From an uncultured Rikenellaceae bacterium (GTDB lineage: Bacteria > Bacteroidota > Bacteroidia > Bacteroidales > VadinHA17): a DNA stretch of 64,000 nt. The stretch is taken from NCBI GenBank assembly GCA_964638545.1, contig CAZXAM010000001.1, forward strand, positions 83,330-147,329, in the 5' to 3' direction. How positions within the stretch are numbered: the stretch's first letter is position 1; each line of letters begins with the position of its first letter. The notes under the pieces are model-generated. The model was not told the origin of the DNA. It saw only the letters and a list, made by a program, of their open reading frames with translations, and did not search any database. The position numbers were made by a program, and so were the translations under genes. Below, piece by piece: positions 1 to 34,207 of the stretch.

Positions 1-960
1 AACCTCTCAATATCGGACCACCGTTGACCTGTATATGCAGCAAAACAGAATAGATCTCTGACATGGTCAAATGTAGGACGGTCGGAGAAATCATGATTGT
101 AGAACTGTGTTAATTCCTGCAGTGTCAAGGTGACAATTTCCTGAACTGGTTTCTTTCGTTTCCGGTTCGCTGCAGAAAAATTCTTGAATTGTTTGAAGAC
201 TGTATATTTATTATAGTTCCTTTCTTCAGACCACCTGCAGAATGTTTTCAAACATTCAATATATTTTCCTTCGGTATCTATTAAAAGACCGTCTTGATGA
301 TCTTCAGGACGTGATTTCTGTCTTCCTCTTGGTTTTTGATTCCGCAGAAACTTGACATACGCATCTTTAAACTGGTGATCAATTTGACTGAAGGAAAGAT
401 TCTGATATTTCTTGTTTGTACTGCCGAACTTAATGAGACTATTTTTCAGAGTAGTATATTTCTGTGCGGTCCGATATGTAACCTCTCCTTTCAAATAGTC
501 AATGTATTCATCCAGTACCTGAAAGATATTCTTGTTTTGCTCCAAGAATGGAATTTCCTTTGTCTTTCCGAACTCATACATTATCCGGTATATTCCTGAA
601 TAAGTCATATCAGGATGATCTTTGACGGTCTGATTATACTTATCAAGGATGTCTTGTTTCAACTGAAGTAGATCACGATTGAAATCCGCTGCACCTGGAA
701 TATTCTCTTTCTTCAGTTGTTTCTTGAAGTCCCATTGTGCAGGTGAAATGGTGTGAGCAGTCTTGATCTTAATTACTTCATGCATACGAATAATTAACAC
801 TGCATAAAGTCTGACTTCCTTACTTACCAGTGTTTTTTTCTTCTTTTTGCCACCATTCGTGCGATCTGTGACACTTTCTCCGGTAAACTGATCATGCACC
901 TCATTTGAAGGTGTATCCTTCTTGTACGGTCTGTGAAGGATTAATTTTACGGTTGCCATT
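1..960 (-). CDS. Tyrosine-type site-specific recombinase/integrase, N-terminal ~320 aa (3' end runs off the left window edge)
   Basis: Absent from the ORF track because it has no in-window stop. Hand translation of the minus strand from ATG 960-958 gives MATVKLILHRPYKKDTPSNE...TAQKYTTLKNSLIKFGS...HVRDLFCFAAYTGQRWSDIER, open to base 1. The SAM-like core-binding region followed by the A-Y-T-G-x-R-x-S-D box (first catalytic Arg) is typical of Bacteroidota phage-integrase-family proteins. Confidence 0.85.
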
Positions 961-1483: not shown

Positions 1484-4284
1484 TCATTTTACGGGACCCA
1501 GGTAATTATCCATGAAGGTTAAAACCTCCCTGATCATTTCATTTTTGGGGATGTAATGATCTGTTTCATAAATACGGATATGTTTATCCTTTAACGGAGT
1601 TCCCATCAGATCAAAAAAAGGTTTCACCGTTGTTTCATATGGAAATGCCATGTCATATTTTCCGTTTAGCATTAAAACTGGAATCCTTGCATAAGGAAGA
1701 TAATTGAACTCATCAGCTTCGGGAATTCGATCATTTGATTCCAGCCCTCCAACAATTAATACGCTCGCTTTAAGGCGGTCTTCAACTGCCGGGATAATAG
1801 CTCCGAGGCTAGCTCCCCAACTATGCCCGTAATAGCATAATTTCCCGGTGTCAATATCCGGTCGCGTCTGCAGGTAATCAATGGACCTGCTGAAATCTTT
1901 AACCCACTTAATTAACCATTCCTCATACTGACGGCCCTGCCAGGTTATAGTTTCCTGGCCATCTTTTCTCTCGAATGTTCCCTTGTAGACTGGGTATAAA
2001 ACAGCCCGGCCACTCTTAAGAATAAAATCGGTAAACCAGTTTGCCCAGTAATTATCGTTGAAGTCCTTGCTGCCAATCGCATTGCTTCCAGGGAAAAAGA
2101 TAAGGGTTTGGTAGGGAGGAGTTGTATTTCTAGGTAAAAAAAGATAACCGATCATTCTTTCATTGTCATAAGCCGCATTGAATGTAATTTTCTCGATAAT
2201 CCAATCCTGGAAACTGCTGTCACTGCTTTCAATTGCTGTGTTCAACTCCTTATTATCATAAAGAAACCTGTTTTTATAAATTCTGAATACAGATTCCGTA
2301 ACTGGCTTTTCTTTGGAATAATCTCTTTTTTCGCTGAATTCATAAGTCTGGAATGCAGTCTGTGGGATTTCCTCTTTATCGATATACTTAACACAACGAA
2401 ACCCGTTTTTTGGTGACCTGTTAAGAGGAGGCAGCTGGCTTATATTGCTGTACATGTAAACAACATCGTCCCATCCGCCACCTCGCACAACCCGTCCATC
2501 AGGTGCCATATTCCAGCACCATTCCCTCACATTCCCAGCCATATCGAAGGCACCAAAACAATTTATCCCCGGATTACTGCCTACCCTTTCCGCGCTAATT
2601 CCTTTAAAGTTGCTGAATGGAAAAAGTCTGGAATAAAAATAGTTACCGAATGCTTCATAGTCAAATCCAGATGCACTTGCCCAATGGCCGATCGTAGGAA
2701 GTTCCTTATCAGAATATTCGGCAAAGGCTGCAGCCTCGTACCAGCAGACTCCTGAAACCGGATAATCATCTTGTCCGTCCGGAAAATCGCCTGCTACCCA
2801 ATTGGAGGGTCCTGGCTGCCCGGTCTTGTCCGTAAATTCAGCCAAAGCTTCCTTAAAGGAAATTGTCTTTCCATCTTTTATGAATGTATTCTTCCAGAAT
2901 TCTGCCTTCCTGTAACCACCATTTTCGATGAATTCTTTGTACTGTCTGTTTGTTACTTCATAACGGTCAATAAAGAATCCATTTTTGGGCCCTAAGTAGT
3001 TACTTGTCAATTCGTTCTTGTAACCGTACACATAGACCATGCCTTCAGGCATTTCACCTAGTTTGAATAATTTGCGATAAACCGTGTCGATTCTTGTCTG
3101 CATTACCCCCAAAACACTTTCGTAACCAGGTTTCTCCATCTTCATCAGATAGAACGAATGTTTTGGTACCTGCAACTGTTCAATAGGTGTTTGGCCTAGA
3201 GCCTTCCATATGCCAGAAGTATCTGAGTATTCTCTGATCAGGACATTCGCTCCGACAGGTTCTGATATTATAGTAATCTTATTTGTAAAAGTTGAGACCA
3301 ATTCTATGAATCTTTCATCGTTTCCAATGTACTTTCCTGCTTTTTGAGATAAAGCAAATGCCTCATCCATTTTGGTTGCATTGGCCAATTGTTCAATCTT
3401 TGGCAAGGCTTCCCGTTTTGCCCAGTTAACCTTGGATTGATGATTAAGCAAAAATGATGTTCCGGTCAAAATTGCCAAAATTACCAGTATCCCAGGTATC
3501 AAAATCCAATGTTTGAACAAAATCCGGGACTTTTGATTATTCCCAGACTTATCTTTCTCTGTTAAGCCTTCAGGTCCTGACCTAATTATTTCGTTTTCAG
3601 ATATCTCTGAAACATTACTCTCCTTTCTCTTCTCGCCTGCTTTTCCCGCGATTTCTTTTTGCTTTGCTTTATCCTCTGGAGTATGATATTTCATACTTTC
3701 AATGATCTCCTTTATTGTCAACGCGACTTTATTTACCTGGTCACGGTAAAGTACCTGCCCCGAGCTTTTTATTATATCATCATCTTTAGCTCTAAGTTGA
3801 CGATTAACACCGGTTTCTTTATATACAAAGTCAATTGATCTCATCACACCTCCGACAACTGACTCAAATAGCCTGGTATCGGCAATTTCAAGGTCATGAA
3901 TCCGAATAGGAAGAACCCTGTTGGCAACATTGCCGCTGGATAGTTTAATTTTAAATCCAAACCTATCCTCTGTTGCCATCTTTATGAATGTTTTTAGCTC
4001 ATTGTCCCAGGCAAACGACCTTGGATCACAGTATGTCCGCGAAATATAGGCACAAAAACCAAGCTTTTCAGTTTATCTTGAAGTGAAGCATTCACATCAT
4101 AGGACTCAAGAAGATAGTCGCTGGGATTAATGTCAAAATATACACTTATTTCATCCTTAAACATTGTCTCAAGTTCTCCCTTCAGGTTATCTACAAACTC
4201 TGTTACCCACCCATCATGCTTGTTGTCCTTCTGGCGGTAGCTGATGAAGATGTCGTAATTATATCCTTCAATTATGCTTGACAT
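1484..4284 (-). pseudogene. Frameshifted paralogue of the TIR-TM-PEGA-FGE-like-alpha/beta-hydrolase receptor
   Basis: ORFs 3994..4287 (97 aa) and 1484..3979 (831 aa) are two halves of one gene. The 97-aa piece matches residues 1-80 of the intact paralogue (11579..14386), then leaves frame. Shifting frame at about 4045-4048 restores ISRTYCDPRSFAWDNELKTFIKMATEDRFGFKIKL, colinear with the paralogue. A 1-nt deletion in CCTAT.ATTTCG explains this. The true start is ATG 4284-4282 (the first M in the track is a TTG). It could also be a sequencing error. Confidence 0.75.
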
Positions 4285-4307
4285 CAATGTATTATTTGGT
4301 TCATTAT

Positions 4308-4898: not shown

Positions 4899-7076
4899 TT
4901 ATTTTTTAGGCAGATTAACCTTTTTCAGAAATTCATCCCAACGGGGATCATCATGAAGAGATGTAAAAACCGGTAGTACGGCTGCCCAGGCTGCATTGCC
5001 TGAATGTGGTTCATAATTAAGCCATTTGAAAGCTTCATCTTTTCTACCCATTGCTGCATAAACCTTCGATCGTTGATATGCACTCATTGGCGTTACTTCT
5101 TTTTTTTCTATCTCGGCCAGGATCTTTTCAGCTTCCTCCTGGTGCCCTGTCGCAATATATGTCAGGCATAGGGGAAATAGATTGCCAGGAGCGACTTCTG
5201 CATGTTTCAAATGTGCTTTAATCGCTTCCTCATTTCTACCCAAACCCAGATACGCATTACCCAGTATCTGATAGCCAAGAGGATAATCCTTTTGAATTTC
5301 AAGGGATCTAAGGGCTTCCTGAATTGCTTCTTCATTCCTGCCCGCATAAATATATAAACCTCCCAGCCAGGCTGTATGGAGCGGATTATACGGATCATAT
5401 TTCTGAGCCAATTTATGTTCTGCAATGGCTTCTTCCATGCGACCCCAAAGGAACAGGCCCCAGGCAAAATGGTAATGGGCCATATCCAGGTTCGGATTTA
5501 ATTCCAGGGCACGCTTAAAATGTTTTTCTGATTTAGCAAAATCCCATGATTTATAGAGGTATACTATAGCCAGAGCAGCATGGACTTCAGCAATAGTAGA
5601 ATCAAGCATAAGTGCTTTATAAGCAAATTCTTCTCCTTTTGCGAGTACATCTCCGGGATCAAGCGGACTATGAGCAATTGACAGATAACCCAGTGCAAGC
5701 CCTGCGTTTGCAAATGCATCTTCAGGAGCGATCCTTACCGCTTCATGAAGGTATTCCAGTCCTTTTGCGTTTCCTTCTTTCGTCGATTTTTCTATTTCAG
5801 CCATTCCCCTGGAATATGCTTCATAAGATTGCGGATTGACCCTGCTTGGCTGAGAAAGTTTTAACAAGTCCTGCGGCAGTAAATCAAGTCCGATCTTCTG
5901 AGTAATCTGCTCTGCAATGTTTTTATGCACTATATGAATATTTGAACGGCTAATTGAATAATTGTTCGCCAGAATAAGTTTTTCTTCGGGAAATATCTGG
6001 ATCAGCCTTATCATAATTTCCTCAAGGTCACCGGATCCTAATACTGAACCTTCAATCAGAAAATCGACCCGGGCATCCTTAGCTATTTTGGCTAATGACA
6101 CTCTATCCCTTTCTAACGCAGCAGTTGTCCGTAAGCCTACAATTCTTAATGGTTTTACCTGGCTTATTCTTCCTAACTCCTGATACGAAGCCTCACGGTG
6201 CATATCAGTCAGATAATCATTTGAAGAATCACCTGTAAGATTTTTAAAAGGCATTAAAGCGACCGACCTTTCAACACCTGGCTCATCTGACTTTCTGAAT
6301 AATTTCGGATAAACAAGTATTGCAGCGATTATTAATATCACCGTGATTAATCCTCCATAAATTACCTTCTGTCTGGATGATTTTGAAATTCCTGCATGCT
6401 TCGATACTTTTTCTTCTCCGACTACTTCTTCGATTGTCCTTTTTTGTTGATCCTTTTCTATCAGTGATTCAGATGGTATTGTGAGTAATCCCATAATAAG
6501 CTCTTTTATTGCAAGAGCGACTTTATTTATCTGATTACGATAATTGGTTTTGTTTAAGTTTTTTTCCTCATTATCTTTTGGTGAAAGTGATCTGTTAACT
6601 CCTGGTTCTTTATAAATGAATTCGACACCACGGAGCACTCCTCCTGTCAGTGATTCACAAAGCTCTATATCCTCATTATCCAGGTCATGAATGCGAACAG
6701 GTAGAACTCTGCTGGCCACATTGCCATTTGGTAATTTTACTTTTAATCCAAACTGGTCCTTAGATGCCTGTTCAACAAACGCCTTAAATTCATGTTCCCA
6801 TGCAAAAGACTTTGGATCACAATAGGTTCGGGAAATAATCGGAATAAAAACCAGGCACCTGAGCTTTTCTTTCAGCGACTCATCCACATCATGTGTTTCA
6901 AGAAGGCCGTCATGAGGATTTATATCGAAGTAAACACTGATTTCTTCCTTAAAAGTGGCTTCGAGCTCTTTCTTCAGGTTTTCAACGAACTCAGTTACCC
7001 ACCCGTCATACTTGTTGTCCTTCTGGCGGTAACTGATAAAGATGTCGTAATTATATCCCTCAATTATACTTGACAT
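4899..7076 (-). CDS. TIR-domain single-pass membrane receptor with TolB-N-like + TPR periplasmic tail (725 aa)
   Basis: The N-terminus MSSIIEGYNYDIFISYRQKDNKYDGWV...VFIPIISRTYCDPKSFAWEHEF gives a TIR_2-like signature. One hydrophobic helix (VIYGGLITVILIIAAILVYP) follows. Next comes VALMPFKNLTGDSSNDYL...LIEGSV, the module seen in CadC/cyclase/kinase-linked TPR sensors. TPR-like repeats run to the C-terminus. Confidence 0.8.
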   Translation of the reverse strand: MSSIIEGYNYDIFISYRQKDNKYDGWVTEFVENLKKELEATFKEEISVYFDINPHDGLLETHDVDESLKEKLRCLVFIPIISRTYCDPKSFAWEHEFKAFVEQASKDQFGLKVKLPNGNVASRVLPVRIHDLDNEDIELCESLTGGVLRGVEFIYKEPGVNRSLSPKDNEEKNLNKTNYRNQINKVALAIKELIMGLLTIPSESLIEKDQQKRTIEEVVGEEKVSKHAGISKSSRQKVIYGGLITVILIIAAILVYPKLFRKSDEPGVERSVALMPFKNLTGDSSNDYLTDMHREASYQELGRISQVKPLRIVGLRTTAALERDRVSLAKIAKDARVDFLIEGSVLGSGDLEEIMIRLIQIFPEEKLILANNYSISRSNIHIVHKNIAEQITQKIGLDLLPQDLLKLSQPSRVNPQSYEAYSRGMAEIEKSTKEGNAKGLEYLHEAVRIAPEDAFANAGLALGYLSIAHSPLDPGDVLAKGEEFAYKALMLDSTIAEVHAALAIVYLYKSWDFAKSEKHFKRALELNPNLDMAHYHFAWGLFLWGRMEEAIAEHKLAQKYDPYNPLHTAWLGGLYIYAGRNEEAIQEALRSLEIQKDYPLGYQILGNAYLGLGRNEEAIKAHLKHAEVAPGNLFPLCLTYIATGHQEEAEKILAEIEKKEVTPMSAYQRSKVYAAMGRKDEAFKWLNYEPHSGNAAWAAVLPVFTSLHDDPRWDEFLKKVNLPKK

Positions 7077-7099
7077 CTGCCTATTAAATGGTTCATTAT

Positions 7100-7131
7100 C
7101 AAAATTAACCCATTATCAGGGTAATTGCAAA
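7100..7131 (-). promoter_or_regulatory. Putative promoter of the 4899..7076 TIR gene (TTTGCA ... TAATTTTG)
   Basis: Minus strand: TTTGCAATTACCCTGATAATGGGTTAATTTTG. Same architecture and near-identical sequence as at 4308..4339, 14409..14440 and 30113..30144. Confidence 0.5.
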
Positions 7132-7309
7132 AATTTTTTCTATGACTGAAGGCAACGGCAATGAAGCACAGCTGATGCGGGATTGCCAATTGATTCTGGC
7201 GTTTAAGGATCAGTTCATCTGGCTTAGACATCAAAATAATCTTCTATCTTGTATTTCATAGGTTTATTTTGTATTTTTGATATAACTGAGAGTAGCTAAA
7301 ACCCAGATA

Positions 7310-9265
7310 ATGAACCTGGCTCACACAAGTGACAGGGAGTTTATTCAAAAGCTGACTGAATTAGTCGAATTAAACCTTGAGGATGAAAAATTCGGAGTGG
7401 ATGTTCTTATACAACTCTCTGGCTTAAGTCCACACATTGTAAGGCAAAGGATTAAAAAAATCTCTCAAAAAACTATAAGCCAGTTCATTAACGAAATCAG
7501 GTTGCGACGGGCAATGGAGATGTTGCAACAGGGCATGATAACAGCCTCAGAAGTCGCCTATAAAGTAGGTTTCGGAAGCGCTACTTATTTTAACAACTGT
7601 TTCCATGATTTCTATGGTTATCCTCCGGGGGAAGTGAAGAAAAGAGGTATGACCGGGATTAAAGAGGACCATGGCGGACATGACCCAGGGAATTTGATGC
7701 CCGTATCAGTAAAGAAAAGACCCTCCCTTAAGCGGAAGATAGTGATCGTTTCATTTGCTCTTTTAGCTGTTCTTCTGTCAGCTCTTATAATTTATTATTT
7801 TCTGTTTAATAAATCGGGAAGAAATTTTAGCAGTCCGGACAAGGAAATCTCTATTGCAGTACTGCCTTTTACAAACCTGAGTGATTCTCCTGAAAACAGA
7901 TATTTCACGGATGGTGTAATGGAAGACATCCTGAGCAACCTGAACCGGATCAGTTCAATAAAGGTTACTTCCAGAACATCGGTTGAAAAGTACCGACAGA
8001 CAACCAGGGGTGCAACAGAAATAGCAAAAGAGCTGAACGTCAGGTATATTCTTGAGGGGAGTGTTCAGAGGAGCAATGATAAGGTAAGAGTCAGGGTGCA
8101 ACTGATCGATGCCAGGCGCGACCAGCATATTCTATCCGAAACATTTGACAGGGAGCTGGATGATATCTTCTATATCCAAAGCAATATTGCAATCCAGATA
8201 GCCAACGAACTGGAAGCTGCACTTTCGCCCGGGGAGACTGAAATGATCGGATATATCCCTACCAGGAATACAGAAGCCTATTCGCTCTATTTAAAAGGCC
8301 GTTATTTCTGGTATAAAAGGACAAGGGAAGGATTCGAAAAAAGTATTGAATTTTTCGAGAAAGCTGTTGAAGCCGATCCCGGTTATGCACTGGCATGGGC
8401 AGGACTGGGTGATGGCTATTTCTATCTTTCATGGTACAATTGGTTTGAACCTGGCCGGGAACAAGGATTTGAAAAAGCAAAAGAAATTGCATTGAAGGCC
8501 ATCAGACTTGATAATGACCTGGCGGAAGCTCATGTTTTGCTGGGAAATGTTTATTTCTGGCATGAATGGAACTGGCAGGAAGCAGAAAAGGAGTTGTCAT
8601 TAGCTGTCAAATTGAATCCGAACTATTACATGGCTCATTGGGTTTATGCAGAACTACTGGATGTTCTGGCCAAAAGAGTGGAAGCCAGAGCCCATTTAAA
8701 CCGCGCACTTGAACTGGACCCGGTTTTTTACCTCCCCTACAGCACCAGTGCATTGCTTTATTACAATGATGGAAATTTTAAGGGTGCGATTAAAGATTGC
8801 CACAAGTGCATTGAGTTAAATCCGGATTATAATTCAGCTTACTATCATGCCTGGTTTAGTTACCTGCAGCTCGACAGTATTCCCCAGGCTATTCACTTCC
8901 TTCAGGAATTGTTATTGGTTGATTATAATACCGGTTATTCAGATTCAAAATACTATGAATCTGTAGATTCCGTCTTCAAAACGGCAGGCATGGAAGGATT
9001 ACTGCAATGGATGCTTCAAAACAGATATGCGCAATCCAGTTTTATAGGAAAAGCCAGATTACTTATGATGATTGGCAACAGGGAGGAAGCGGTCAGGAGC
9101 CTTGAACTGGGATATAAATTGCATGAGCGTGATATGGTCAGAATCATCTCAATATATGATTTAGTTGATCTCCGCTCTGAGCCACGTTATATGGAAATCG
9201 TCAAAAACATGGGGTTGGCGGATTACTTAAATGTAGCCCTGGCTTCAGGACAGTTGCCACAATGA
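7310..9265 (+). CDS. AraC-family HTH single-pass membrane regulator with TolB-N-like + TPR periplasmic tail (651 aa)
   Basis: The N-terminal region FINEIRLRRAMEMLQQGMITASEVAYKVGFGSATYFNNCFHDFYGYPPGEV is a classic AraC/XylS HTH_18 region. It is followed by a TM helix (IVIVSFALLAVLLSALIIYYFLF), then ISIAVLPFTNLSDSPENRYFTDGVMEDIL...YILEGSVQ...VQLIDAR, then TPRs. The tail is roughly half identical by eye to the tail of the TIR protein at 57961..60105. Confidence 0.85.
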   Translation: MNLAHTSDREFIQKLTELVELNLEDEKFGVDVLIQLSGLSPHIVRQRIKKISQKTISQFINEIRLRRAMEMLQQGMITASEVAYKVGFGSATYFNNCFHDFYGYPPGEVKKRGMTGIKEDHGGHDPGNLMPVSVKKRPSLKRKIVIVSFALLAVLLSALIIYYFLFNKSGRNFSSPDKEISIAVLPFTNLSDSPENRYFTDGVMEDILSNLNRISSIKVTSRTSVEKYRQTTRGATEIAKELNVRYILEGSVQRSNDKVRVRVQLIDARRDQHILSETFDRELDDIFYIQSNIAIQIANELEAALSPGETEMIGYIPTRNTEAYSLYLKGRYFWYKRTREGFEKSIEFFEKAVEADPGYALAWAGLGDGYFYLSWYNWFEPGREQGFEKAKEIALKAIRLDNDLAEAHVLLGNVYFWHEWNWQEAEKELSLAVKLNPNYYMAHWVYAELLDVLAKRVEARAHLNRALELDPVFYLPYSTSALLYYNDGNFKGAIKDCHKCIELNPDYNSAYYHAWFSYLQLDSIPQAIHFLQELLLVDYNTGYSDSKYYESVDSVFKTAGMEGLLQWMLQNRYAQSSFIGKARLLMMIGNREEAVRSLELGYKLHERDMVRIISIYDLVDLRSEPRYMEIVKNMGLADYLNVALASGQLPQ

Positions 9266-9504
9266 TTGAATTGAGCAGTTGTATGTCTCGCACCTGCTCA
9301 GTCGCCAGGAATTTATGATATACAGCTGGTTCCGAAAAATCCTATCCTTAAAAAACCTTAAGGTTTTTTGAAAAGTTTCAACAATAGTTTTAAAAACTTC
9401 AACTTTCAGGAAAGAAATTTCTATGCACCCCCTTTCCGTTTTCCCGAAATTTATATAAGGATTGAATGAATAATCCTTCTTGTAAAACTTAAAACTTTTA
9501 TATC

Positions 9505-11007
9505 ATGAAAACACCTGGAAGATTTTTATTCATTGCGGCTTTTATGAGCCTGATCATTGGTTGCAGTGAGAAGGAGACTGGGATAGGCGGATTGGCTGAA
9601 TCAGATCTGAATATAGCATCATTAAATCTGAAAGCAGCAAGCGGTTCAGCCATATTTGTTGTCAATCCGAGCGGAGGTGATGATACCCCTGCTGTTTTAG
9701 AGGCATTTGATAACGCCAAAGCCGCCGGACCTGGCTCGGTGGTCCAACTGGAAGAAGGTACTTATCACCTGAATTTTCTGGAGGTACGTGAATTTAACGG
9801 TAAATTCAATGGAGCCGGCAGGGGTAAAACTATAATCACAACGGTACCTGATCTCGATGTTAACACACTGATCGATTTGAAATTAAATACAATTTTGATC
9901 CGATTTGTAGGAGGCGATGTTTGCATGAGTAACATGACAGTAACGACACCTTACGGCCCATTGAGCACAGGCAAGGAATCTTATATCGACGGACTGGTTG
10001 GATTTTCAGCCCGGACTTATCAGTATACTTCAATGAATGATTATATAAAAGCGGTTGTCGATAATGTCGGATTTAAAGGACACTGGGAAAATACTCTCCA
10101 TGGATTAAAAGCAGAATTCGGTACCAGAGCAAATGCAAGGATTCCCGGAGGATGGCCTCTCTCGTACATGGAGATTTCAGTCAATAACTGCTCTTTTGAT
10201 GGTTTCTATTCTTTTGGTGCACTTTTTCAACATTTCAACGGTGGAAAGATCGTTGCCGGAACCAAAAACCGCGGAAACATTTTTGATAACAATAGCGTAA
10301 GCGGAAATGTCCCATTTGAAACAGGAGGCGGTGGATCACTTGGGATCTGGAGTAATGTCAATGTTGAAATGTCTGTTGAGGGGAATACATTCACTGTCCC
10401 GGAGGGAGTACGTTGGGGTATTGAAATATTCAGTTCACCCGTTCCTGCCCGTCTCGCGCAGGTAACGCAAACAAAAGTTACGGTTTGCAATATTGAAAAA
10501 AATGTTTTCAACATTACCGGGGGTGCAGGAGGTGTGTCTGTCAATGACCGACGCCGATTCTTCTTTCCTGAAGAATTGCCTATGATTGTTCAGGTCAAAA
10601 ACAATATGTTCAATCTAAGTAATGAGACATTTTCGGCTATAAGTTCCTGTAACATGAAGGGTATGGTTATTCGGAATAACAAGTTTGAGGGAAATGGACA
10701 ATATGGAGTCCGGATAATCGGCCCCATTGTTGCCAGTAGTGGTCAGTCTCCCCTGCCGCCTAACGAAAATGGCCTGATGCTTGGTAACAACTATAGCAAT
10801 TCAACTTTTTCAGTAGCTTCAGTCCTTCTTGATGAACGAACAAATAACTGGACAATAGTGGGTGGTAACCTGGGTGAAAGTCTGATCGACATGACCAACG
10901 GGGCAGGAAATCATCTCATCACCGGAATGAATGTAAACACTTCCGATGTTCCTTTAGGCCAGACTATTACAGATAACCTGGAAGAAATAAGAGAAGGAAT
11001 GAAATAG
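9505..11007 (+). CDS. Secreted lipoprotein, probable right-handed parallel beta-helix (pectate-lyase-superfamily-like) protein
   Basis: Lipoprotein signal MKTPGRFLFIAAFMSLIIGC. The motif NPSGGDDTPAVLEAFDNAKAAGPGSVVQLEEGTYHL resembles the N-terminal cap of pectate_lyase_3-type beta-helix proteins. Repetitive N/G-rich turns follow. Confidence 0.5.
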   Translation: MKTPGRFLFIAAFMSLIIGCSEKETGIGGLAESDLNIASLNLKAASGSAIFVVNPSGGDDTPAVLEAFDNAKAAGPGSVVQLEEGTYHLNFLEVREFNGKFNGAGRGKTIITTVPDLDVNTLIDLKLNTILIRFVGGDVCMSNMTVTTPYGPLSTGKESYIDGLVGFSARTYQYTSMNDYIKAVVDNVGFKGHWENTLHGLKAEFGTRANARIPGGWPLSYMEISVNNCSFDGFYSFGALFQHFNGGKIVAGTKNRGNIFDNNSVSGNVPFETGGGGSLGIWSNVNVEMSVEGNTFTVPEGVRWGIEIFSSPVPARLAQVTQTKVTVCNIEKNVFNITGGAGGVSVNDRRRFFFPEELPMIVQVKNNMFNLSNETFSAISSCNMKGMVIRNNKFEGNGQYGVRIIGPIVASSGQSPLPPNENGLMLGNNYSNSTFSVASVLLDERTNNWTIVGGNLGESLIDMTNGAGNHLITGMNVNTSDVPLGQTITDNLEEIREGMK

Positions 11008-11030
11008 AAATTCAACTTATCTTGAATTGC

Positions 11031-11064
11031 CGGATTGCAGTTGGCTTCAGCCAACTGCAATCCG
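11031..11064 (+). terminator. Intrinsic terminator-like hairpin after the lipoprotein gene
   Basis: CGGATTGCAGTTGGC-ttca-GCCAACTGCAATCCG: a perfect 15-bp stem followed by tcgttttctc. A related GGCTTCAGCC core recurs at about 60196-60209. Confidence 0.6.
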
Positions 11065-11230
11065 TCGTTTTCTCAACATATACTAAAGTAGAAAAGCCGG
11101 TGACCTTGACCACTTTAACCTATACTTGATTGACCACCTATTATCAAAACTAATCCTCTGATAAATAAACAAATACTTAATTGATATTATGACCGGCTGA
11201 ATCTGGTCAGGCCTTCCGGCTTAGGCTGGG

Positions 11231-11578: not shown

Positions 11579-14386
11579 TTATTTTACCCTACCAAGATAG
11601 ATGTCAAGGAATTCAAGGACATCCTTTATCATATCATCTTTGCGAATATAATGGTCAGTATCATAAATCTTTAAATGCTTATCTTCTGGCTGCGTTCCCA
11701 AAAGATCATAAAAAGGTTTTACGTTTGTCTCAAATGGAAATGCAAGATCATATTTGCCGTTCAACATTAATACTGGTATCTTTACATAAGGCAGATAATT
11801 TAATTCATCTGCTTCAGGAATGCGTTTTCTCGTAGGTAAGCCCCCGACAATTAAGACACTAACTTTAAGACGGTCTTCAACTGCAGGAATTATCGCTCCA
11901 AGTCTCCCGCCCCAGCTATGACCATAGTAGGCCAGTTTCCCGGTATCAATATCCGATCTGGTAAAAAGATAATCAATCGATCTTTTAAAATCCTTAACCC
12001 ATTTAGTCAACCAATCAGCGTACTGATGGCCCTCATTTGTTACTGGTTTTTCGTTATCTATTCTTTCAAAGGTCCCATCATAAACCGGATATAGGACAGC
12101 ACGTCCGCTCTTCAGAATAAAGTCTGTGAACCAATTTGCCCAGTAATTTTTATTGAAATCCGTGGTACTAAGCGCATTACTGCCGGGGAAAAAAATGAGT
12201 GTCTGATAGGGCGGTGGAGAATTTTTTGGTATGAAGAGATATGCAATCATCTTTTCATTATTATACGCTGCATTGAAGGTGACTTTTTCAAGTATCCAAT
12301 CCTGATAACTGCTGTCCCGGCTTTCTATCAGGGCGTCTAATGGTATATTATCATAAAGAAACCTGCTTTTATAAATCCTGTAGGTAACCTCCGGAACCGG
12401 CCTTTCGATTGCATAGTTTCTGGATTCAGGGAGTATATACGATTGAAAAGCCGATTCAGGAATTTTTTCTTCATTTAAATATTTAACACATCGAAATCCA
12501 TTTTTGGGTGATCTGTCAAATGGAGGCAGCTGACTTATATTACCATACATATAAACAACATCATCCCACCCGCCTCCTCTCATTATCCTGCCATCAGGAC
12601 CCTGGTTCCAGCACCATTCTCTTACATTGCCCGCCATATCAAGCGCCCCGAAGCAGTTAATTGCAAAATTGGTTCCAACAGGTAAAGGGCCTGCTCCTTT
12701 AAAGTTGCTTAAAGGAAATAGTTTTGAATAGAAATAGTTTCCGAATGCTTCAAATTGGAATCCAGCTGCACTTCCCCAGTGATTGACGGTTGGAAGTTTC
12801 TTGCCGGCGTATTCAGCATAGGCTGCAGCCTCATACCAACTTATACCAGATACCGGATAATTTTCATATCCATCAGGGTAGTCGCCGGCAATCCACGTTG
12901 ATGGTCCGGGTTGTCCCGTTTTGTCCTTAAACTCAGTGAATGCCTCACTTAACGTTAATTTTTTCCCATCCTTTATGAAGTCATATTTCCAGTATTCTGG
13001 TTTCCTGTAACCACCTTCATTAACGAATTTTTTAAATTCTTTATTGGTAACTTCACAGCGATCAATCAAAAAACCATTCTTGTTTTTAAGATAATTACCT
13101 AATAATTCATTCTGGTAACCATATACATATATCATCCCGGGTGGAATAGTTCCCTGCTTGAATAACCTTCTGAAAATCGTATCAATCCTTGTCTGCATTA
13201 CAGCATCAATACTCTCATAGCCGGGTTTTTCAATTTTCATAAGGTAGAAGCTATGTTTTGGGACCAGGACTTGTCCTATCGGTGTCTTACCAAGATACTT
13301 CCATTGAGCAGCCGTATCAGAAAAGTCTCTGATCCTTACCTCCGCACCATCAGGATCAGTAATAATTGAAATATTTGTGGTAAAAGAAGATACCAATTCA
13401 TTGTAATTCTTGTTTTTTGAAAGATACTTTGCAACTTCCTGAGACAGCTTAAATGCTTCATCCATATTATTGCTGTTTGCAAGCTGTTCAATTTGAGGTA
13501 GCGCTTTTTCTCTTGCCCATTTGATCTTTGATTGCCGGTTAATTAAAATACCAATCATTAAAACAGAAGATAAAACAAACAGTATTAAAAGGAACATAAA
13601 CCATTTCCTTTTAAATAATAAAATCGCTCTTCTTCTTTCAGGGATTGGTAACTCCATTATTTGATCCTTCCCGATTACTTCTCCATTTTTATATTCAGGT
13701 TTTTCTGACCTAATTCTAATTTCATCTTCCCCCTTATGATCAAAATCTCTGATGTTATTTTCGGTCTTCATGTTCTCAGATGAGAAGGATATCATACTAT
13801 CAACCATCTCCTTGATTGCTAATGCAACCTTATTAATCTGGTCTCGGAAAAGTACCTGGCCCGGATATCTTACTATATCATCATCCTTACTTCTCAGCTG
13901 TCGGTTTACACCTGTTTCCTTATAAACAAAATCAATTGATCTCATAATACCGCCAACAACTGATTCGAATAATTTTATATCCCCTGGATCAAGATCATGA
14001 ATCCGGATTGGCAACACTCTGCACGCCACATTTCCGTTCAGAAGCTTGATTCTTAATCCAAACTTGTCTTCAGATGCCAGCTTCACAAATTCTTTCAACT
14101 CATTGTCCCAGGCAAATGCTTTTGGATCGCAATATGTCCTTGAAACAATCGGAATGAATATCAGACATTTGAGTCTGTCTCTTAAAGAGTCTTTTACGTC
14201 ATATGATTCAAGAAGATAGTCGCTGGGATTTATATCATAATATAGACTTACATCATCTTTAAACATTGAATCAAGTTCTCCTTTGAGATTCTCAACAAAC
14301 TCCGCCACCCAGTTATCGTGTTTGTTATCCTTCTGGCGGTAACTAATAAAGATGTCGTAATTGTAACTTTCAATAATGCTTGACAT
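11579..14386 (-). CDS. TIR-TM-PEGA-FGE/SUMF1-like-alpha/beta-hydrolase receptor (935 aa)
   Basis: TIR head at residues 1-~190 (DIFISYRQKDNKHDNWV...IFIPIVSRTYCDPKAFAWDNEL). TM helix at about 262-282 (WFMFLLILFVLSSVLMIGILI). PEGA-like segment at about 338-395 (ITDPDGAEVRIRD...GKTPIG...KIEKPGYES). FGE-sulfatase-like domain at about 418-636 (IDRCEVTNKEFKKFV...GNVREWCWN...RGGGWDD...GFRCVKY). C-terminal alpha/beta-hydrolase with G-H-S824-W-G, D880 and H912 (DLH / S9-peptidase-like). Confidence 0.85.
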   Translation of the reverse strand: MSSIIESYNYDIFISYRQKDNKHDNWVAEFVENLKGELDSMFKDDVSLYYDINPSDYLLESYDVKDSLRDRLKCLIFIPIVSRTYCDPKAFAWDNELKEFVKLASEDKFGLRIKLLNGNVACRVLPIRIHDLDPGDIKLFESVVGGIMRSIDFVYKETGVNRQLRSKDDDIVRYPGQVLFRDQINKVALAIKEMVDSMISFSSENMKTENNIRDFDHKGEDEIRIRSEKPEYKNGEVIGKDQIMELPIPERRRAILLFKRKWFMFLLILFVLSSVLMIGILINRQSKIKWAREKALPQIEQLANSNNMDEAFKLSQEVAKYLSKNKNYNELVSSFTTNISIITDPDGAEVRIRDFSDTAAQWKYLGKTPIGQVLVPKHSFYLMKIEKPGYESIDAVMQTRIDTIFRRLFKQGTIPPGMIYVYGYQNELLGNYLKNKNGFLIDRCEVTNKEFKKFVNEGGYRKPEYWKYDFIKDGKKLTLSEAFTEFKDKTGQPGPSTWIAGDYPDGYENYPVSGISWYEAAAYAEYAGKKLPTVNHWGSAAGFQFEAFGNYFYSKLFPLSNFKGAGPLPVGTNFAINCFGALDMAGNVREWCWNQGPDGRIMRGGGWDDVVYMYGNISQLPPFDRSPKNGFRCVKYLNEEKIPESAFQSYILPESRNYAIERPVPEVTYRIYKSRFLYDNIPLDALIESRDSSYQDWILEKVTFNAAYNNEKMIAYLFIPKNSPPPYQTLIFFPGSNALSTTDFNKNYWANWFTDFILKSGRAVLYPVYDGTFERIDNEKPVTNEGHQYADWLTKWVKDFKRSIDYLFTRSDIDTGKLAYYGHSWGGRLGAIIPAVEDRLKVSVLIVGGLPTRKRIPEADELNYLPYVKIPVLMLNGKYDLAFPFETNVKPFYDLLGTQPEDKHLKIYDTDHYIRKDDMIKDVLEFLDIYLGRVK

Positions 14387-14626: not shown

Positions 14627-15880
14627 TTAAACTCCCAGAGAGGCAAGTGATATAATATTGATACCATCGGGACGAGTGTAACTTACACCTGTTCCGACAA
14701 TGATATTCAGCGACTTTGGCGGGCCAATGTTTCTTATATCGAGTGTCGTTGCTAATTTTTTTAAATTTGAGGCAACTTCAGTAATCATACCCATCCCGAG
14801 TTTAATTTCAAATGCGGCCCAATCACCGTTGCGCTTCTGAACAATGCAGTCGATCTCCAGACCACTTGAATCAGAGTAATGGCTGACGCCGGCATCATTT
14901 GCCTGGGCGTAGACTCGCAGATCATGTGTTGCAAGCGATTCGAACAAAAAGCCTGTAAATTTCACATCTTTCAATAATGATCCTTTATCGGCTCCCAATG
15001 CAGCTACTGATAATGAGACATCTGTAAAATGTATTTTCGGGGATTTCCTAAGCGATGCAGATGAGCGGATATGTGTGCTCCAAGCTGGTTGGTTTTCAAT
15101 AATCATCAGCCGTTCAAGAGCATCGAGATATTCATGAACGGTTGGACGCGAAATATCACCGCTGTCATTCTCCTTTATATCCTTCACGATAGCAGTTTTG
15201 GCTGCCAGCGTTGCCGTATTTCTTGCAATAGACCTGAAAATGTTTTTCACTTTAATCGGGTCACGTTTAATGTTCGAAATACGACTCATATCGATCCCGG
15301 CTATTAAATCGATATACGCTCGATTAATCATTAAGGCTTCATCTGTTGTGGACGTCAGTAAGCCAGGCCAGCCACCTTTGATAATTCTTTCGACGATGGT
15401 TTCCAGATCAACAGATCTGTCTGACAGATCAATTTTCTTATCAGATAATAACTGTTTCATACTGGCCTGACCCGTGGAATAGCCCAATTCCTGCCATGAC
15501 AGGGTACGCATATCAACCGTAGTGAATCTTCCTGCCCCGGAATGAATAGGAATTTTATCATCGGGAGTGGAAGAACCGGTAAGAATAAACTGTGACTTTG
15601 CTTTCCGGGCGTCTATTTCGTGCCGTATGTAGTTCCAGAGTTTTGGCTGTTCCTGCCATTCGTCAATCAGCCGGGGTACCTGCCCTGTTAAAAGTCGTTT
15701 GGGATCGGCATCCATCAGGTAGGGCACCTGCTCATCCTGGTCAACCCGGAGAACGCTTGACGCTGATCGCAAAGCTGTTTCTGTCTTTCCGCATGCCTTT
15801 GGACCTCGAATCAGAACTGCTCCGGAAGCATTCAGCTTGGCATTAATCTCTGCCTCAACAATTCTTTTAATATAACTCAT
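14627..15880 (-). CDS. AAA-type ATPase of the AAA_14 + DUF4143 kind
   Basis: Walker A is LIRGPKACGKTE and Walker-B-like is RLIDEWQ. The overall pattern (…FILTGSS…, …GGWPG…, C-terminal restriction-endonuclease-like DUF4143 region with EIDCIV…FEIK) is typical of this common Bacteroidota family. Confidence 0.75.
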   Translation of the reverse strand: MSYIKRIVEAEINAKLNASGAVLIRGPKACGKTETALRSASSVLRVDQDEQVPYLMDADPKRLLTGQVPRLIDEWQEQPKLWNYIRHEIDARKAKSQFILTGSSTPDDKIPIHSGAGRFTTVDMRTLSWQELGYSTGQASMKQLLSDKKIDLSDRSVDLETIVERIIKGGWPGLLTSTTDEALMINRAYIDLIAGIDMSRISNIKRDPIKVKNIFRSIARNTATLAAKTAIVKDIKENDSGDISRPTVHEYLDALERLMIIENQPAWSTHIRSSASLRKSPKIHFTDVSLSVAALGADKGSLLKDVKFTGFLFESLATHDLRVYAQANDAGVSHYSDSSGLEIDCIVQKRNGDWAAFEIKLGMGMITEVASNLKKLATTLDIRNIGPPKSLNIIVGTGVSYTRPDGINIISLASLGV

Positions 15881-21032: not shown

Positions 21033-24000
21033 CTATTCAACCATTAACCGTTCAATATCAAGACTCTTCTTTTCGCTGTTTCGCCCCTTCCCCGAATGGA
21101 GGATCTTATACATTACAGGCACCACAATCAATGTCAGGAAAGTTGAAAGCAACATCCCTCCGATTATCACCCATGCCAGGCCGTTCCTCAGTTCTGCCCC
21201 GGCTCCTTTTGAAAGGGCAACAGGAAGCATCCCGATGATCGTTGAAAGCGCAGTCATGAGGATCGGTCGGGTACGAATCCGCACCGCCTGAAGAAGAGCT
21301 TCGTTGATCTCTTTTCCTTCCTTTATTGCATCATTGGCGAAATCGACCAGGAGGATAGCATTCTTCCCGACGAGCCCGATAAGCATAACAAGTCCCAGCA
21401 TGCCGTAAACGCTCAGTGCGGTGTTTGTCAGTGCCAGCGCCAGGATAGCCCCCAGGATTGCAAGCGGGATTGAAAACAGAACAACAAACGGATCTGTCCA
21501 GTTATTATAAAGAACAACAAGGGAAAGGTAAATAAGCACAATCGACAGGAGAAGAGCCCCGGTCATGACGGTCATTGAATCTCCCATTGACTGCATATCA
21601 CCCGTTACGACAAGTTTGGTCCCCTGCGGCTTTTGCATCTTCTCAATCCTGTCGCTGAATTCCTGTGAAACCTCTCCCGAAGTAGCGCCGAGAACCTGCG
21701 TACGGATAGTAACGGAACTGTTCCGGTTGAATCTTTCCAGCCGACTTGGACCGGTTCCGAGGGTGACATCAGCAAATTGTGACAGGCGGATTGCCTCGCC
21801 CCTGCTATTCATGAATGTAAGGTTACCGACATCTTCCACCTGTTCCCTGTATGCCTTATCAGCTCTTATATTAATATCATATTCATAGTTGTTTTCAGTA
21901 TACTTAAGAGAGTTGTTTCCCTGGTATGTCATCTGCATTGTAAAGCCGACATTGTCAAGCGTCAGGCCGAGTGAAGACATCTTATCACGGTCTACAGACA
22001 CATTTATCTCGGGCGTTCCGCTTTCGACTGACAACTCCTGCTGCATAGTACCCGGAATGGATCGCATAACCTCAAGAGCCTGGTCAGCGAAGATCATCAC
22101 AGAATCGGCATCATTGCCTGTGATTACGTATTCAACTGCGGCCTTCGCAGCCTGACCTGTCACAGCAACACTGAAGATATTTACATTCGCATCAACAAGG
22201 TAATCGGACAGAGGCTTTTTGATTTTTGCAATATACAGTCTTGTGTTTTCGTCACGTTGTTTTGACGGTACAAGCTTCACGTTAAGCTCTGCAAGAAATG
22301 GTGTCCCCTGTGTACTCTGGGTATTGTCACTTGTAAGACCCACCATTGTGACAACCTTGCTCACCTCTGGTTTGAGCCGGAACCAGTCTTCGGCTTTCCG
22401 GACAAGAGCATTCGATTCTTCAAGCGAGATATCCTTGGGCATCTCAAGCTGTACGATGAACTCACCCCTGTCGACGTCGGGTAAAAACTCAAATCCTATA
22501 AAGCCCAGCGGGAAAAGAGAAAATACTGCAATTGTAATTCCAAGAATGATCAGTGCCAGCCATCGCTTGTGAAAAAGCGCCCACTTTAATAATCGCGATA
22601 TCCAAAGGCCAAATGCCACTATCATTTTTTCAAATCCAATCAAAACCTTCTCAAACAGGTTCTTTCCAGTCAGTACCTGAATGTTGCCAAACCTGGAAGT
22701 AAGGAGAGGAACAAGAGTAAGCGCAGCAAGAAGGCTGACGAGGATTGAGAATATTATCACCCCGCAGAACTGCCGGAGAATGTCTGAAACGAGTGTATTT
22801 GTCAGAGCAATTGGTAAGAAAACAATAACAAGCACAATAGTGATGGAAATTACCGTGAATCCAATTTCCTTCATTGCATCCCATGAGGCACGCACCCGGT
22901 TTTTGCCCATCTCGATATGCCGGTACACGTTTTCTATTACTACAATTGCATCGTCAACAAGCACCCCGATAACAAGTGAGAGGCCAAGCAGTGACATCAG
23001 GTTAAGCGAAAAATTAAAAAGATTCATGCCAATGAATGTCGAGATAAGTGATACGGGCACGACAACCATTACTACTATGGCATTCCTGAAATTATGAAGG
23101 AAAAGCAACATGACAAGTGAGACAAGCAAGACTGCCAGGAGAAGATCTGTCAGCACCGATGAAATTGATTCACGCGTAAAGTCGGTGGAATCCTGGGCAA
23201 TCTCCATTGCCAGACCGTTTTCCGAATATTCATTTTCGAGTGACTTGATTGTCTTCCGGATATTATCACTTACATCAACGGCGTTAGCGTCAGATTGCTT
23301 ATATATGTTGATGAGTATCGCATCTTCCCCGTTTACCCGGGCGAGACTGGCGGGATCTTTAATTGCATCCGTAATTTCCGCTATATCCTGCAACCTTACC
23401 TGTGTGCCGGTTGGAGTTGTCATCAGCACGAGGTTACTGATTTCATCCACGCTGGTGAATTTACCTGAAAGGCGGACTGCGGTCTGGGTCTCCGAATTAC
23501 GAAGGCTGCCTGTCGGGAAATCAAGGTTGGAAGATCTTATTACTCCCTGTATCTGAGCTGGCGTTACGCCTAAAGCCCGCATCCTGGCGGCATCGAGATT
23601 GACCTGAATCTCCCTTTGCAATCCTCCGATAAGTGTCCCCTTTGAGACACCTTTTATACCTGAGAGCTGTGGAAGGATACGTTTGTCCATCAGATCAAAA
23701 AACCGTGTCGGCTCAAGATCTGAAGTTGCAGATAAAATAATTATCGCCTTGTCATCAACAGTAACCTTTGAAATAACCGGCGACAGTACTGATACCGGAA
23801 GCTGGGATCTTTTTGCATCAATGAAATTCTGCGCATCAGTTATTGATTTGTCTACATCAGTACCATATTTGAAGGTGACAAAGAGCATAGACATACTTTC
23901 ATATGAATAGGACTGTATCTTGTCAATGCCCTCCATGCTTGAGAGAGCATCTTCAACCTTGCGGGTCAATGAATTCTCTACCTCCGAAGGAGATGCGCCC

Positions 24001-24155
24001 GGGTAAACTATCTGGACATTTATCACCGGAGGCGTGAATTTTGGCATCAGCTCGGCGCTCAGATCTTTGTAGCTGATAAAACCCAGGATTGCCAGAACCG
24101 AAAACAAAACAATTACATATATCGGTCGCTTTATTGATATCTCTGATATTTTCAT
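21033..24155 (-). CDS. RND efflux pump inner-membrane permease (AcrB/HAE1 family)
   Basis: 1040 aa with a 12-TM, two-large-loop layout. The start MKISEISIKRPIYVIVLF and the motif LVIGVLVDDAIVVIEN are typical of the family. Confidence 0.9.
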   Translation of the reverse strand: MKISEISIKRPIYVIVLFSVLAILGFISYKDLSAELMPKFTPPVINVQIVYPGASPSEVENSLTRKVEDALSSMEGIDKIQSYSYESMSMLFVTFKYGTDVDKSITDAQNFIDAKRSQLPVSVLSPVISKVTVDDKAIIILSATSDLEPTRFFDLMDKRILPQLSGIKGVSKGTLIGGLQREIQVNLDAARMRALGVTPAQIQGVIRSSNLDFPTGSLRNSETQTAVRLSGKFTSVDEISNLVLMTTPTGTQVRLQDIAEITDAIKDPASLARVNGEDAILINIYKQSDANAVDVSDNIRKTIKSLENEYSENGLAMEIAQDSTDFTRESISSVLTDLLLAVLLVSLVMLLFLHNFRNAIVVMVVVPVSLISTFIGMNLFNFSLNLMSLLGLSLVIGVLVDDAIVVIENVYRHIEMGKNRVRASWDAMKEIGFTVISITIVLVIVFLPIALTNTLVSDILRQFCGVIIFSILVSLLAALTLVPLLTSRFGNIQVLTGKNLFEKVLIGFEKMIVAFGLWISRLLKWALFHKRWLALIILGITIAVFSLFPLGFIGFEFLPDVDRGEFIVQLEMPKDISLEESNALVRKAEDWFRLKPEVSKVVTMVGLTSDNTQSTQGTPFLAELNVKLVPSKQRDENTRLYIAKIKKPLSDYLVDANVNIFSVAVTGQAAKAAVEYVITGNDADSVMIFADQALEVMRSIPGTMQQELSVESGTPEINVSVDRDKMSSLGLTLDNVGFTMQMTYQGNNSLKYTENNYEYDINIRADKAYREQVEDVGNLTFMNSRGEAIRLSQFADVTLGTGPSRLERFNRNSSVTIRTQVLGATSGEVSQEFSDRIEKMQKPQGTKLVVTGDMQSMGDSMTVMTGALLLSIVLIYLSLVVLYNNWTDPFVVLFSIPLAILGAILALALTNTALSVYGMLGLVMLIGLVGKNAILLVDFANDAIKEGKEINEALLQAVRIRTRPILMTALSTIIGMLPVALSKGAGAELRNGLAWVIIGGMLLSTFLTLIVVPVMYKILHSGKGRNSEKKSLDIERLMVE

Positions 24156-24218
24156 CTGTATATTTTTAGTCAGGTCAGAACTCTTCTCCTTTACGAAATT
24201 GCCTGAAAGGGTTTCGGT

Positions 24219-25280: not shown

Positions 25281-25379
25281 GATTTTAAAGATTTTGCCTC
25301 CCCTTCCTGTCCCGGTGGAACCTCCCGGCTCAGCATTGTCCGTTTATTTGATTTTTATTATGATTTCATGCATTTTAAA

Positions 25380-26747: not shown

Positions 26748-26750
26748 TTT

Positions 26751-27368: not shown

Positions 27369-27511
27369 TGAAATACTTAATTTTTTCAGCTGAATATTTT
27401 GCAAATATACACTTTTTATATTATATTAGTGTATTTAGTATATTACAGACCGGAAATAATTTTCTGACTTTTGACAACGGGTGAGGCGGGAAGTGGTCAG
27501 ATGCTTCGATA

Positions 27512-30089: not shown

Positions 30090-30112
30090 TCTGAAACTAA
30101 TTTGTTCATTAT

Positions 30113-30240: not shown

Positions 30241-31569
<1,329 letters not shown>

Positions 31570-31576
31570 TTATTAG

Positions 31577-32854
<1,278 letters not shown>

Positions 32855-32890: not shown

Positions 32891-34207
<1,317 letters not shown>

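Follow-up and report, generated by a model that had tools for sequence, protein, structure and literature searches.

A probable membrane-tethered AraC-type regulator shares its periplasmic cassette with TIR-like-headed paralogues in an uncultured Rikenellaceae bacterium

In one-component regulators such as CadC, ToxR, TcpP and PsaE, an N-terminal cytoplasmic DNA-binding domain is joined through one transmembrane (TM) helix to a C-terminal periplasmic sensor, with no phosphorelay between them. Proteins of the AraC/XylS family usually carry a C-terminal DNA-binding domain behind a cytoplasmic ligand-binding or dimerisation domain. Here we describe a protein that places an AraC/XylS head in the first of these layouts. 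It is encoded at 7310-9265 in a 64,000-nucleotide stretch from an uncultured Rikenellaceae bacterium (contig CAZXAM010000001.1, positions 83,330 to 147,329 of the forward strand), hereafter the window, to which coordinates refer unless another locus is named. We consider it likely to be a CadC/ToxR-style one-component, single-pass inner-membrane regulator with an AraC head of MarA/SoxS size. The gene and its parts are as follows.

7310-9265, forward strand: regulator gene, an intact open reading frame (ORF) of 651 amino acids, comprising AraC head, TM helix, TolB-N-like juxtamembrane (JM) domain and tetratricopeptide repeats (TPRs)
7421-7645, forward strand: AraC/XylS-type double helix-turn-helix (HTH) domain, predicted to be cytoplasmic (residues 38-112; the whole head covers residues ~3-113)
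7736-7807, forward strand: sole TM helix (residues ~143-166), the only hydropathy peak, with KKRPSLKRK directly before it
7823-8314, forward strand: periplasmic JM alpha/beta domain with the TolB-N/FlgO/LpoB/PelC fold, plus the first helices (residues 172-335); the core common to the TIR-like paralogues
8315-9262, forward strand: variable periplasmic TPR solenoid, presumably specificity-determining (residues 336-651), matching multiple Pfam TPR families

The regulator differs from the CadC/ToxR family in its head, which is of AraC/XylS rather than OmpR/ToxR winged helix-turn-helix (wHTH) type. Compared with CadC, its helical part is a TPR solenoid of ~300 residues, and nothing points to a pH or lysine signal. 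HilA and EilA of Salmonella and E. coli also place a TPR-containing domain behind a DNA-binding head, but in HilA this head is a wHTH and there is no TM helix. Vibrio cholerae TfoS couples an inner-membrane-tethered AraC-type DNA-binding domain to a periplasmic sensor in the opposite domain order, with a periplasmic N-terminus and a C-terminal AraC domain, and its sensor resembles those of hybrid two-component systems instead of a TolB-N and TPR tail. The same TolB-N-like and TPR cassette, again N-in/C-out, is carried by class III cyclases and Hanks-type kinases (e.g. TIGR04510), with a JM identity to the regulator of ~41-42% at the median and 55% at most; these proteins differ in their output, which is cyclic nucleotide synthesis or phosphorylation, and many have 2-7 tandem cassettes.

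The assignment of the head is firm. An earlier note on this DNA, made from the letters alone, had called it canonical AraC/XylS, and Pfam HTH_18 indeed matches residues 38-112 well above threshold (E 1.2e-14; 54.8 bits, cut-off 33.6). The NCBIfam SoxS, RhaR, RhaS and AraC models span residues ~3-112, with positions 3-101 of the 107 in the SoxS model aligned to residues 8-107, and the head has the ~100-residue length and two helix-turn-helix motifs that define the family. It departs from the usual AraC/XylS layout in standing at the extreme N-terminus, followed by a 30-residue basic linker, the TM helix and the periplasmic tail. No second cytoplasmic domain is apparent beside it from Pfam and hydropathy, the phosphotransfer domains HisKA, HATPase and Response_reg are without a match in Pfam or NCBIfam, and Pfam finds no Trans_reg_C (OmpR/ToxR winged helix) in the head. 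The TM segment reaches a 19-residue Kyte-Doolittle mean of 2.9. Its N-terminal flank holds five K/R and no D/E, whereas the C-terminal side has a net charge of +1, and an N-in, C-out orientation is therefore predicted. Orthologues found by homologue search have 646-651 amino acids and are 63-89% identical.

Behind the membrane, residues 177-276 match Pfam FlgO (23.2 bits in the whole protein and 26.7 for the isolated domain, cut-off 22.6) and TolB_N (21.5 and 24.8 bits, cut-off 22.4). From 27 sequences, AlphaFold2 (AF2) models residues 172-335 with a confidence score (pLDDT) of 92, and the 30 best Foldseek matches of this model are TolB, PelC, GNA1162, FlgT and LpoB (E 1e-7 to 1e-5), the TolB N-domain leading at E 1e-7. 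Curated cut-offs and fold matches together place the domain in the TolB_N/FlgO/LpoB/PelC type. Pfam TPRs cover residues 340-540 of the solenoid that follows. Foldseek also superposes the JM model on the periplasmic part of E. coli CadC (3ly7), with E 9e-5 and a query-based TM-score of 0.57. Several NCBIfam models match the tail at scores below their family cut-offs: CadC on residues 178-363 (E 5.5e-7, 28.8 bits against a cut-off of 400), HilA/EilA (E 6e-10 for the regulator and E 4.5e-17 for a TIR-like paralogue, far below the family cut-off), TolB (E 1.3e-7) and TIGR04510, the 'putative peptide modification system cyclase' (again far below). On these profile and model matches, the tail, with its alpha/beta domain and the helical repeats behind it, is best described as remotely related to the C-terminal region of CadC and HilA, and not as a member of those families.

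Three further proteins in the window carry this tail behind a different head.

4899-7076, reverse strand: paralogue with TIR-like head and TM, JM and TPR tail; the most divergent tail (BLASTP)
27675-30089, reverse strand: paralogue with TIR-like head and TM, JM and TPR tail (BLASTP)
57961-60105, reverse strand: paralogue with TIR-like head and TM, JM and TPR tail; the closest JM domain, at 49% (BLASTP)

BLASTP alignments of the regulator with these three begin at the TM helix and reach the C-terminus, with 33% identity over 503 residues for 57961-60105 (E 5e-75), 38% over 343 for 27675-30089 (E 1e-58) and 28% over 516 for 4899-7076 (E 1e-45). Two repeat-rich proteins could resemble one another through generic TPR composition, and the TPR parts are indeed just 26-32% identical. 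The non-TPR JM domain, taken by itself, nevertheless gives 49% over 153 residues (E 1e-48), 47% (E 3e-45) and 31% (E 1e-15) against the same proteins in that order. These identities, together with the confidently modelled TolB-N-like fold, refute compositional noise as the source of the likeness, and we give that explanation practically no credence. The earlier note had proposed by eye that TM helix, a juxtamembrane motif string and TPRs were common to these proteins, and that the regulator was about half identical to 57961-60105 over some 150 residues. Pairwise alignment recovers the motif, the shared JM domain and the TM segment, and the estimate of one half was accurate.

The exchange of heads on this tail is far wider than the window. 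A profile built from its four JM domains retrieves 101,695 clusters at 50% identity with E <= 1e-3, and 27,803 with E <= 1e-30, so that the cassette is among the commonest periplasmic input modules of bacteria (~100,000 clusters). The 149 best-scoring of the 101,695 clusters (P0080 excluded) are proteins with 2-7 tandem cassette copies, and their heads are distributed as follows.

Ser/Thr kinase: 52
class III cyclase: 37
BTAD: 11
canonical TIR_2: 4
short, absent or unclassified: 45

Guanylate_cyc, BTAD and TIR_2 heads were confirmed by Pfam on examples (E 1e-18 to 1e-27), and an OmpR-type wHTH head (Trans_reg_C) occurs on the same tail in a Bryobacteraceae metagenome-assembled genome (MAG; locus L008). 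Among the giant proteins of this set (P0241-P0389), in which multi-cassette tails stand behind kinase, cyclase, BTAD or TIR_2 heads, P0241 has 2837 residues and seven copies. The AraC-headed family alone has more than 7,700 matches, in Prolixibacteraceae, Draconibacterium, Labilibaculum and other Bacteroidales, and goes under the JGI name 'TolB-like protein/AraC-like DNA-binding protein'. The TIR-like-headed family is equally large, and both have thousands of automatically annotated members; some TIR-like ones are named 'adenylate cyclase' by JGI, owing to the tail. The natural head swap on a common tail that the earlier note described is thus real, with seven head types on the same tail (AraC HTH, TIR-like, canonical TIR_2, Ser/Thr kinase, class III cyclase, BTAD and OmpR-type wHTH), and from the sequences it is one case of a general modularity already named by automatic annotation. 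Our literature search found no description of a TM, TolB-N-like and TPR architecture with such heads, which is weak evidence because most subscription journals lay outside the search, and no studies of what the cassette senses or how it signals.

The swap seen in the window is not a recent event in this genome. A neighbour-joining phylogeny of 238 tails with the head types mapped onto it was built, and it is star-like (internal branches 0.001-0.01), so that swaps can be neither counted nor dated from it; a best-hit comparison was used instead. In that sample the nearest neighbour of a tail has the same class of head in 236 of 238 cases, and in the other two there is a tie across classes. The regulator's tail is 88% identical to that of its orthologue but just 44% identical to the nearest tail of the TIR class, which argues against a recent exchange. 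A cleaner AraC/TIR-like pair, with a swap apparently more recent than that in the window genome, is formed by P0049 and P0173, which are 50% identical over the entire 528-residue tail (E 6e-170), with similarity starting just before the TM helix.

Downstream of the regulator gene lie a conserved partner gene and the elements through which the AraC head could act; they are given here with the spacer on the upstream side.

9505-11007, forward strand: lipoprotein with right-handed beta-helix repeats, the conserved partner and likely target (lipobox IIGC, residues 17-20)
9367-9504, forward strand: promoter-proximal conserved region, a candidate operator for the AraC head, from the alignment of four orthologous spacers
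9367-9382 and 9388-9403: direct-repeat pair of 16-mers, 21 bp apart
9414-9424 and 9446-9456: direct-repeat pair GAAATTT(C/A)TAT, 32 bp apart
11031-11064, forward strand: strong terminator-like hairpin with a 15-bp stem, closing the HTH/beta-helix unit
7077-7309, intergenic: divergent spacer of 233 bp between the regulator and 4899-7076, with one TAnnTTTG -7 box per gene

Regulator and lipoprotein genes are paired in five orthologous loci (the window, L001/L002, L006, L007 and L013), the lipoprotein gene lying 180-250 bp 3' of the regulator gene and its products being 58-74% identical. The window's beta-helix protein has no match in PDB, Pfam or NCBIfam, and only orthologues, such as that of L007, reach the Pfam Beta_helix cut-off. 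A metagenome scan with the beta-helix protein added just one further locus. The genomes that come nearest, at 65% identity, are MAGs of uncultured Prolixibacteraceae. The 65%-identical HTH and beta-helix locus L006 lies on a contig labelled 'Candidatus Saccharibacteria' (CAYOEG010000014.1); its spacer is nearly identical to that of the Prolixibacteraceae MAG locus L007, and the label probably stems from a binning error in the MAG to which this contig was assigned.

Conservation within the spacer is concentrated next to the lipoprotein gene. Between loci, identity reaches 78-87% in the 115 nt that precede its start codon, whereas coding DNA is 66-73% and the distal spacer 58-61% identical. GAAATTTMTAT is confined to 9414-9456 within the window, where 0.12 occurrences are expected. 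A motif scan found Bacteroidota-type TAnnTTTG -7 boxes at 7272 (forward) for the regulator gene, where the box is kept in orthologous loci, and at 7107 (reverse) for the TIR-like gene, and none in the beta-helix promoter region 9367-9504. A sigma-70 promoter scan, unsuited to Bacteroidota and not above shuffled expectation, was set aside in favour of this motif. Being conserved, repeat-bearing and free of a -7 box, 9367-9504 fits a putative activator-dependent promoter. The spacer corresponds to no known RNA family, since an Rfam scan of 6900-11200 gave just a chance RsaOG match below threshold. The earlier proposal that the regulator controls the beta-helix gene fits both the five-locus pairing and a spacer more conserved than coding DNA, and we retain it as putative. 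Distant AraC-headed members, too, have a gene for an envelope or secreted protein (Por_Secre_tail, TonB_C) directly 3' of their own.

The upstream side tells a different story. The neighbour of the regulator gene on that side differs in every orthologous locus, so the divergently transcribed TIR-like gene is probably incidental, and a meaning for this pairing is not supported. At the closest locus, L013, whose HTH protein is 89% identical, the divergent neighbour (1-816, reverse strand) is another AraC-headed TM and JM paralogue. We considered whether 4899-7076 had replaced such an AraC-headed gene in place; the JM domain of the L013 neighbour is of the ordinary HTH-family type, unlike that of 4899-7076, and the idea was dropped. 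Genes of the cassette family tend to cluster whatever their head, as in locus L011, where four head-bearing genes lie within 12 kb.

In the mechanism that we favour, the variable TPR part would bind a periplasmic partner. Judging by the usual role of TPR and TolB-N-like domains, this partner is more likely to be a protein or a component of the envelope than a small molecule. The conserved JM domain would relay this event across the membrane as a changed self-association or orientation. The tethered AraC head would then occupy the direct repeats at 9367-9456 and activate the beta-helix lipoprotein gene, which is without a housekeeping -7 box. Self-association or proximity is what activates Hanks-type kinases, class III cyclases, ToxR-type wHTH heads and TIR domains alike, and signal-controlled head proximity is therefore the simplest mechanism common to the heads found on this cassette.

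The strict pairing of the two genes lends itself to another interpretation, in which the lipoprotein is a periplasmic co-sensor and not, or not only, a target, as with ToxS for ToxR, TcpH for TcpP and VtrC for VtrA. It would bind the TPR or JM part and control the activity or stability of the regulator, whose real regulon would lie elsewhere. The pair is kept in all five loci while other neighbours vary, the lipoprotein is exposed to the periplasm or the surface, domains of the TPR and TolB-N-like types bind proteins, and the gene next to that of a ToxR-like regulator typically encodes a co-sensor. The other genes that follow distant members, however, mean that there is no family-wide partner of this kind, and the spacer's own conserved, repeat-bearing region fits a regulated promoter. 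We regard a co-sensor as possible but rather doubtful.

A further alternative, which would replace the dimerisation switch, is regulated intramembrane proteolysis: the tail would act as a degradation sensor in the periplasm, and cleavage would free the MarA-like head as a soluble monomer. The head is a complete domain of MarA/SoxS size, a type able to act in monomeric form; a linker of 30 residues separates it from the TM helix, and TcpP, ToxR and CadC are known to undergo proteolysis. Against this, the locus contains no linked protease gene, the sequence bears no cleavage-site mark, and the same tail drives kinases and cyclases, which cannot act by release. We think proteolytic release improbable.

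Several points weigh against a membrane-tethered regulator that acts by dimerisation on the adjacent gene, and they temper our preference for it. The head-in, tail-out topology is a prediction from sequence. HilA is a cytoplasmic protein and matches the same tail profile, so the cassette is not intrinsically periplasmic. The monomeric action of MarA/SoxS-type domains means that a dimerisation switch is not required for an AraC head, and proteolytic release could serve in its place. No strong terminator separates the regulator and beta-helix genes, and their pairing may therefore reflect co-transcription or a sensor-partner relation instead of that of regulator and target. One distant homologue has an unrelated neighbourhood, and the literature search found no experimental work on the AraC-headed or TIR-like-headed family.

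The heads of the three paralogues had been read simply as TIR domains. Pfam TIR_2 matches them below threshold (E 0.004; 18 bits, with the cut-off at 28), and a precomputed TIR annotation is absent from all 120 listed relatives of the TIR-like paralogue; what stands is a resemblance in fold and profile. An AF2 model of the head, of modest confidence (pLDDT 63), has the order beta-alpha-beta-alpha-beta-alpha-beta-alpha, and 24 of its 25 best Foldseek matches in the PDB are TIR domains, among them PdTIR (E 6e-4), BtpA, BtTir, AbTir, TIR-STING and Roq1; the modest-confidence model and these matches place the heads in the flavodoxin-like TIR fold. Aligned with canonical TIR_2 heads from the same module by hhalign, a neighbour head gives 88% probability and E 2.9e-6 over the first 62 columns only. 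Fold and profile comparison together support a divergent TIR fold. The best positional evidence comes from a second kind of tail.

11579-14386, reverse strand: TIR-like head on a TM, FGE-sulfatase and alpha/beta hydrolase tail

The tail of this protein is 40% identical to that of the L011 gene at 7121-9703 in a related genome (E 2e-173), whose head is a canonical TIR_2 (E 2.6e-22), whereas 11579-14386 has the divergent 'YDIFISYRQKDNK' head; by its sequence, the pair is a second kind of head swap. A search of the head profile against PDB sequences returned nothing significant: a match to Mediator Med11 (E 0.09) was spurious, and the L6 TIR reached just E 0.18. The architecture of 11579-14386 recurs in the ORFs at 3994-4287 and 1484-3979 (reverse strand), which together form one gene with TIR-like head, TM helix, FGE-sulfatase and alpha/beta hydrolase, split by a single frameshift near 4040 inside 'IPIISRTYCDP' that marks a pseudogene or an assembly error.

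The TIR-like head is conserved far better than the tails, with a median identity of 75% against ~49% for whole proteins. W93 and E96 (numbering of 57961-60105), where the predicted third helix begins, are invariant, and E94 alternates with Q. A conserved stretch follows the core at residues ~145-190 of the same protein (GGxLRxxEFIYKEPGVNRPL...NLNKTxYRxQINKV) and is also found in its paralogues; its AF2 confidence is very low (pLDDT 32-48), and it may be a partner-binding or regulatory segment. The heads at 6687-7116 and 29700-30129 (both reverse strand) share ~90% DNA identity over ~390 nt and ~40 nt of upstream promoter, after which identity drops sharply. The tails of the two proteins, 4899-7076 and 27675-30089, are less than 30% identical, which indicates gene conversion or a recent exchange of heads between the two genes. 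A profile search with the TIR-like head (P0390-P0509) returned matches of mostly 185-320 residues among those listed, 82 of 120 without a TM helix and some on contigs longer than 200 kb; the short, head-only matches may be fragments or frameshift products that say little on tail diversity.

Whether these heads are outputs of a sensor or toxins was a central point of the earlier note, which held that the shared tail makes them sensor-controlled modules rather than free-standing toxins. The first half stands as a reasonable inference from the architecture and from the module's other heads: the best argument for periplasmic control is that the same cassette drives heads activated by proximity. 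The second half is supported but not proved by it, as a sensor-triggered suicide NADase would share the architecture. Characterised bacterial TIR proteins are mostly NADase defence effectors (PMC11350192), and the paralogues could be abortive-infection or toxin effectors in which sensed phage or envelope damage leads to lethal NAD+ depletion. The invariant W-x-x-E of the head and the presence of several TIR-like paralogues per genome would suit such a role. So would the AAA_14/DUF4143 ATPase at 14627-15880 (reverse strand), which lies directly upstream of 11579-14386 and matches the PADLOC candidate PDC-S01 (E 1e-60); the same order of ATPase and TIR-head gene recurs in L011 (ATPase at 5443-6723). 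A functional link between the DUF4143 ATPases and the TIR-head genes is possible on this gene order. A second ATPase-like ORF at 60526-61662 (reverse strand), with weak AAA_14/ATPase_2 matches, lies upstream of 57961-60105.

Other observations are difficult to reconcile with a lethal effector. Searched against PADLOC-DB 2.0 (E <= 0.01), neither the HTH protein nor any of the three paralogues with TIR-like heads on TolB/TPR tails finds a match, and 11579-14386 yields just a marginal one to bSEFIR (E 0.009). The head is unusually conserved, unlike those of fast-evolving defence effectors, its genes stand among xylan-utilisation genes and not in a defence island, and the same sensor drives ordinary signalling heads. 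Taken together, we lean against the toxin interpretation while granting it a real share of the probability. The further suggestion that one ligand may activate both the HTH version and the TIR versions is not borne out: the well-conserved JM part is generic, occurring in ~100,000 clusters, and the presumed specificity-determining TPRs are only 26-32% identical, which makes a shared ligand unlikely.

Like animal Toll-like receptors, the TIR-like paralogues combine extracytoplasmic solenoid repeats, one TM helix and a self-associating cytoplasmic TIR-fold domain. They differ in the N-terminal position of the TIR, in having TPRs instead of leucine-rich repeats and in the additional TolB-N-like domain, and the comparison is meant as an analogy, not as common descent of the whole architecture. 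A 2024 survey notes that the membrane and repeat features of Toll-like receptors seem absent from the bacterial TIR systems studied (PMC11350192). A more speculative and, in our view, somewhat unlikely extension is that the TIR-like and AraC versions together form a very large, unrecognised class of transmembrane receptors with Toll-like-receptor logic and a non-lethal, conserved output. The TIR-like-headed genes have multiplied in Bacteroidales and Marinilabiliales, with many paralogues in one genome, and on this view many envelope cues would converge on one head, for instance through an NAD+-derived messenger or one conserved partner. Head-tail recombination, as in the head gene conversion and the AraC/TIR-like exchange on 50%-identical tails, would rewire sensors between outputs.

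The locus is chiefly of value as a tractable entry to a very common sensor module and to TIR-fold proteins coupled to the membrane. An AraC-headed member that has a conserved, compact candidate target promoter offers a simple transcriptional read-out for the cassette, and lessons on JM signalling should transfer to the kinase, cyclase and TIR versions. The neighbouring genes suggest that some bacterial TIR-fold domains may be wired to extracytoplasmic sensors, which would widen the present picture of cytoplasmic phage-sensing NADases. With natural head-swap controls at hand, the question of signal generator or suicide enzyme would become testable in one organism.

The surrounding window is a xylan-utilisation region (30241-35539, reverse strand, and 40801-56386). 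It includes four tandem paralogous esterase genes of ~430 codons, of which the two scanned match Pfam Esterase, together with a carboxylesterase, four GH10 xylanases, one GH43 and a gene pair of SusC/SusD size. An RND efflux operon with a TetR gene occupies 21033-27404.

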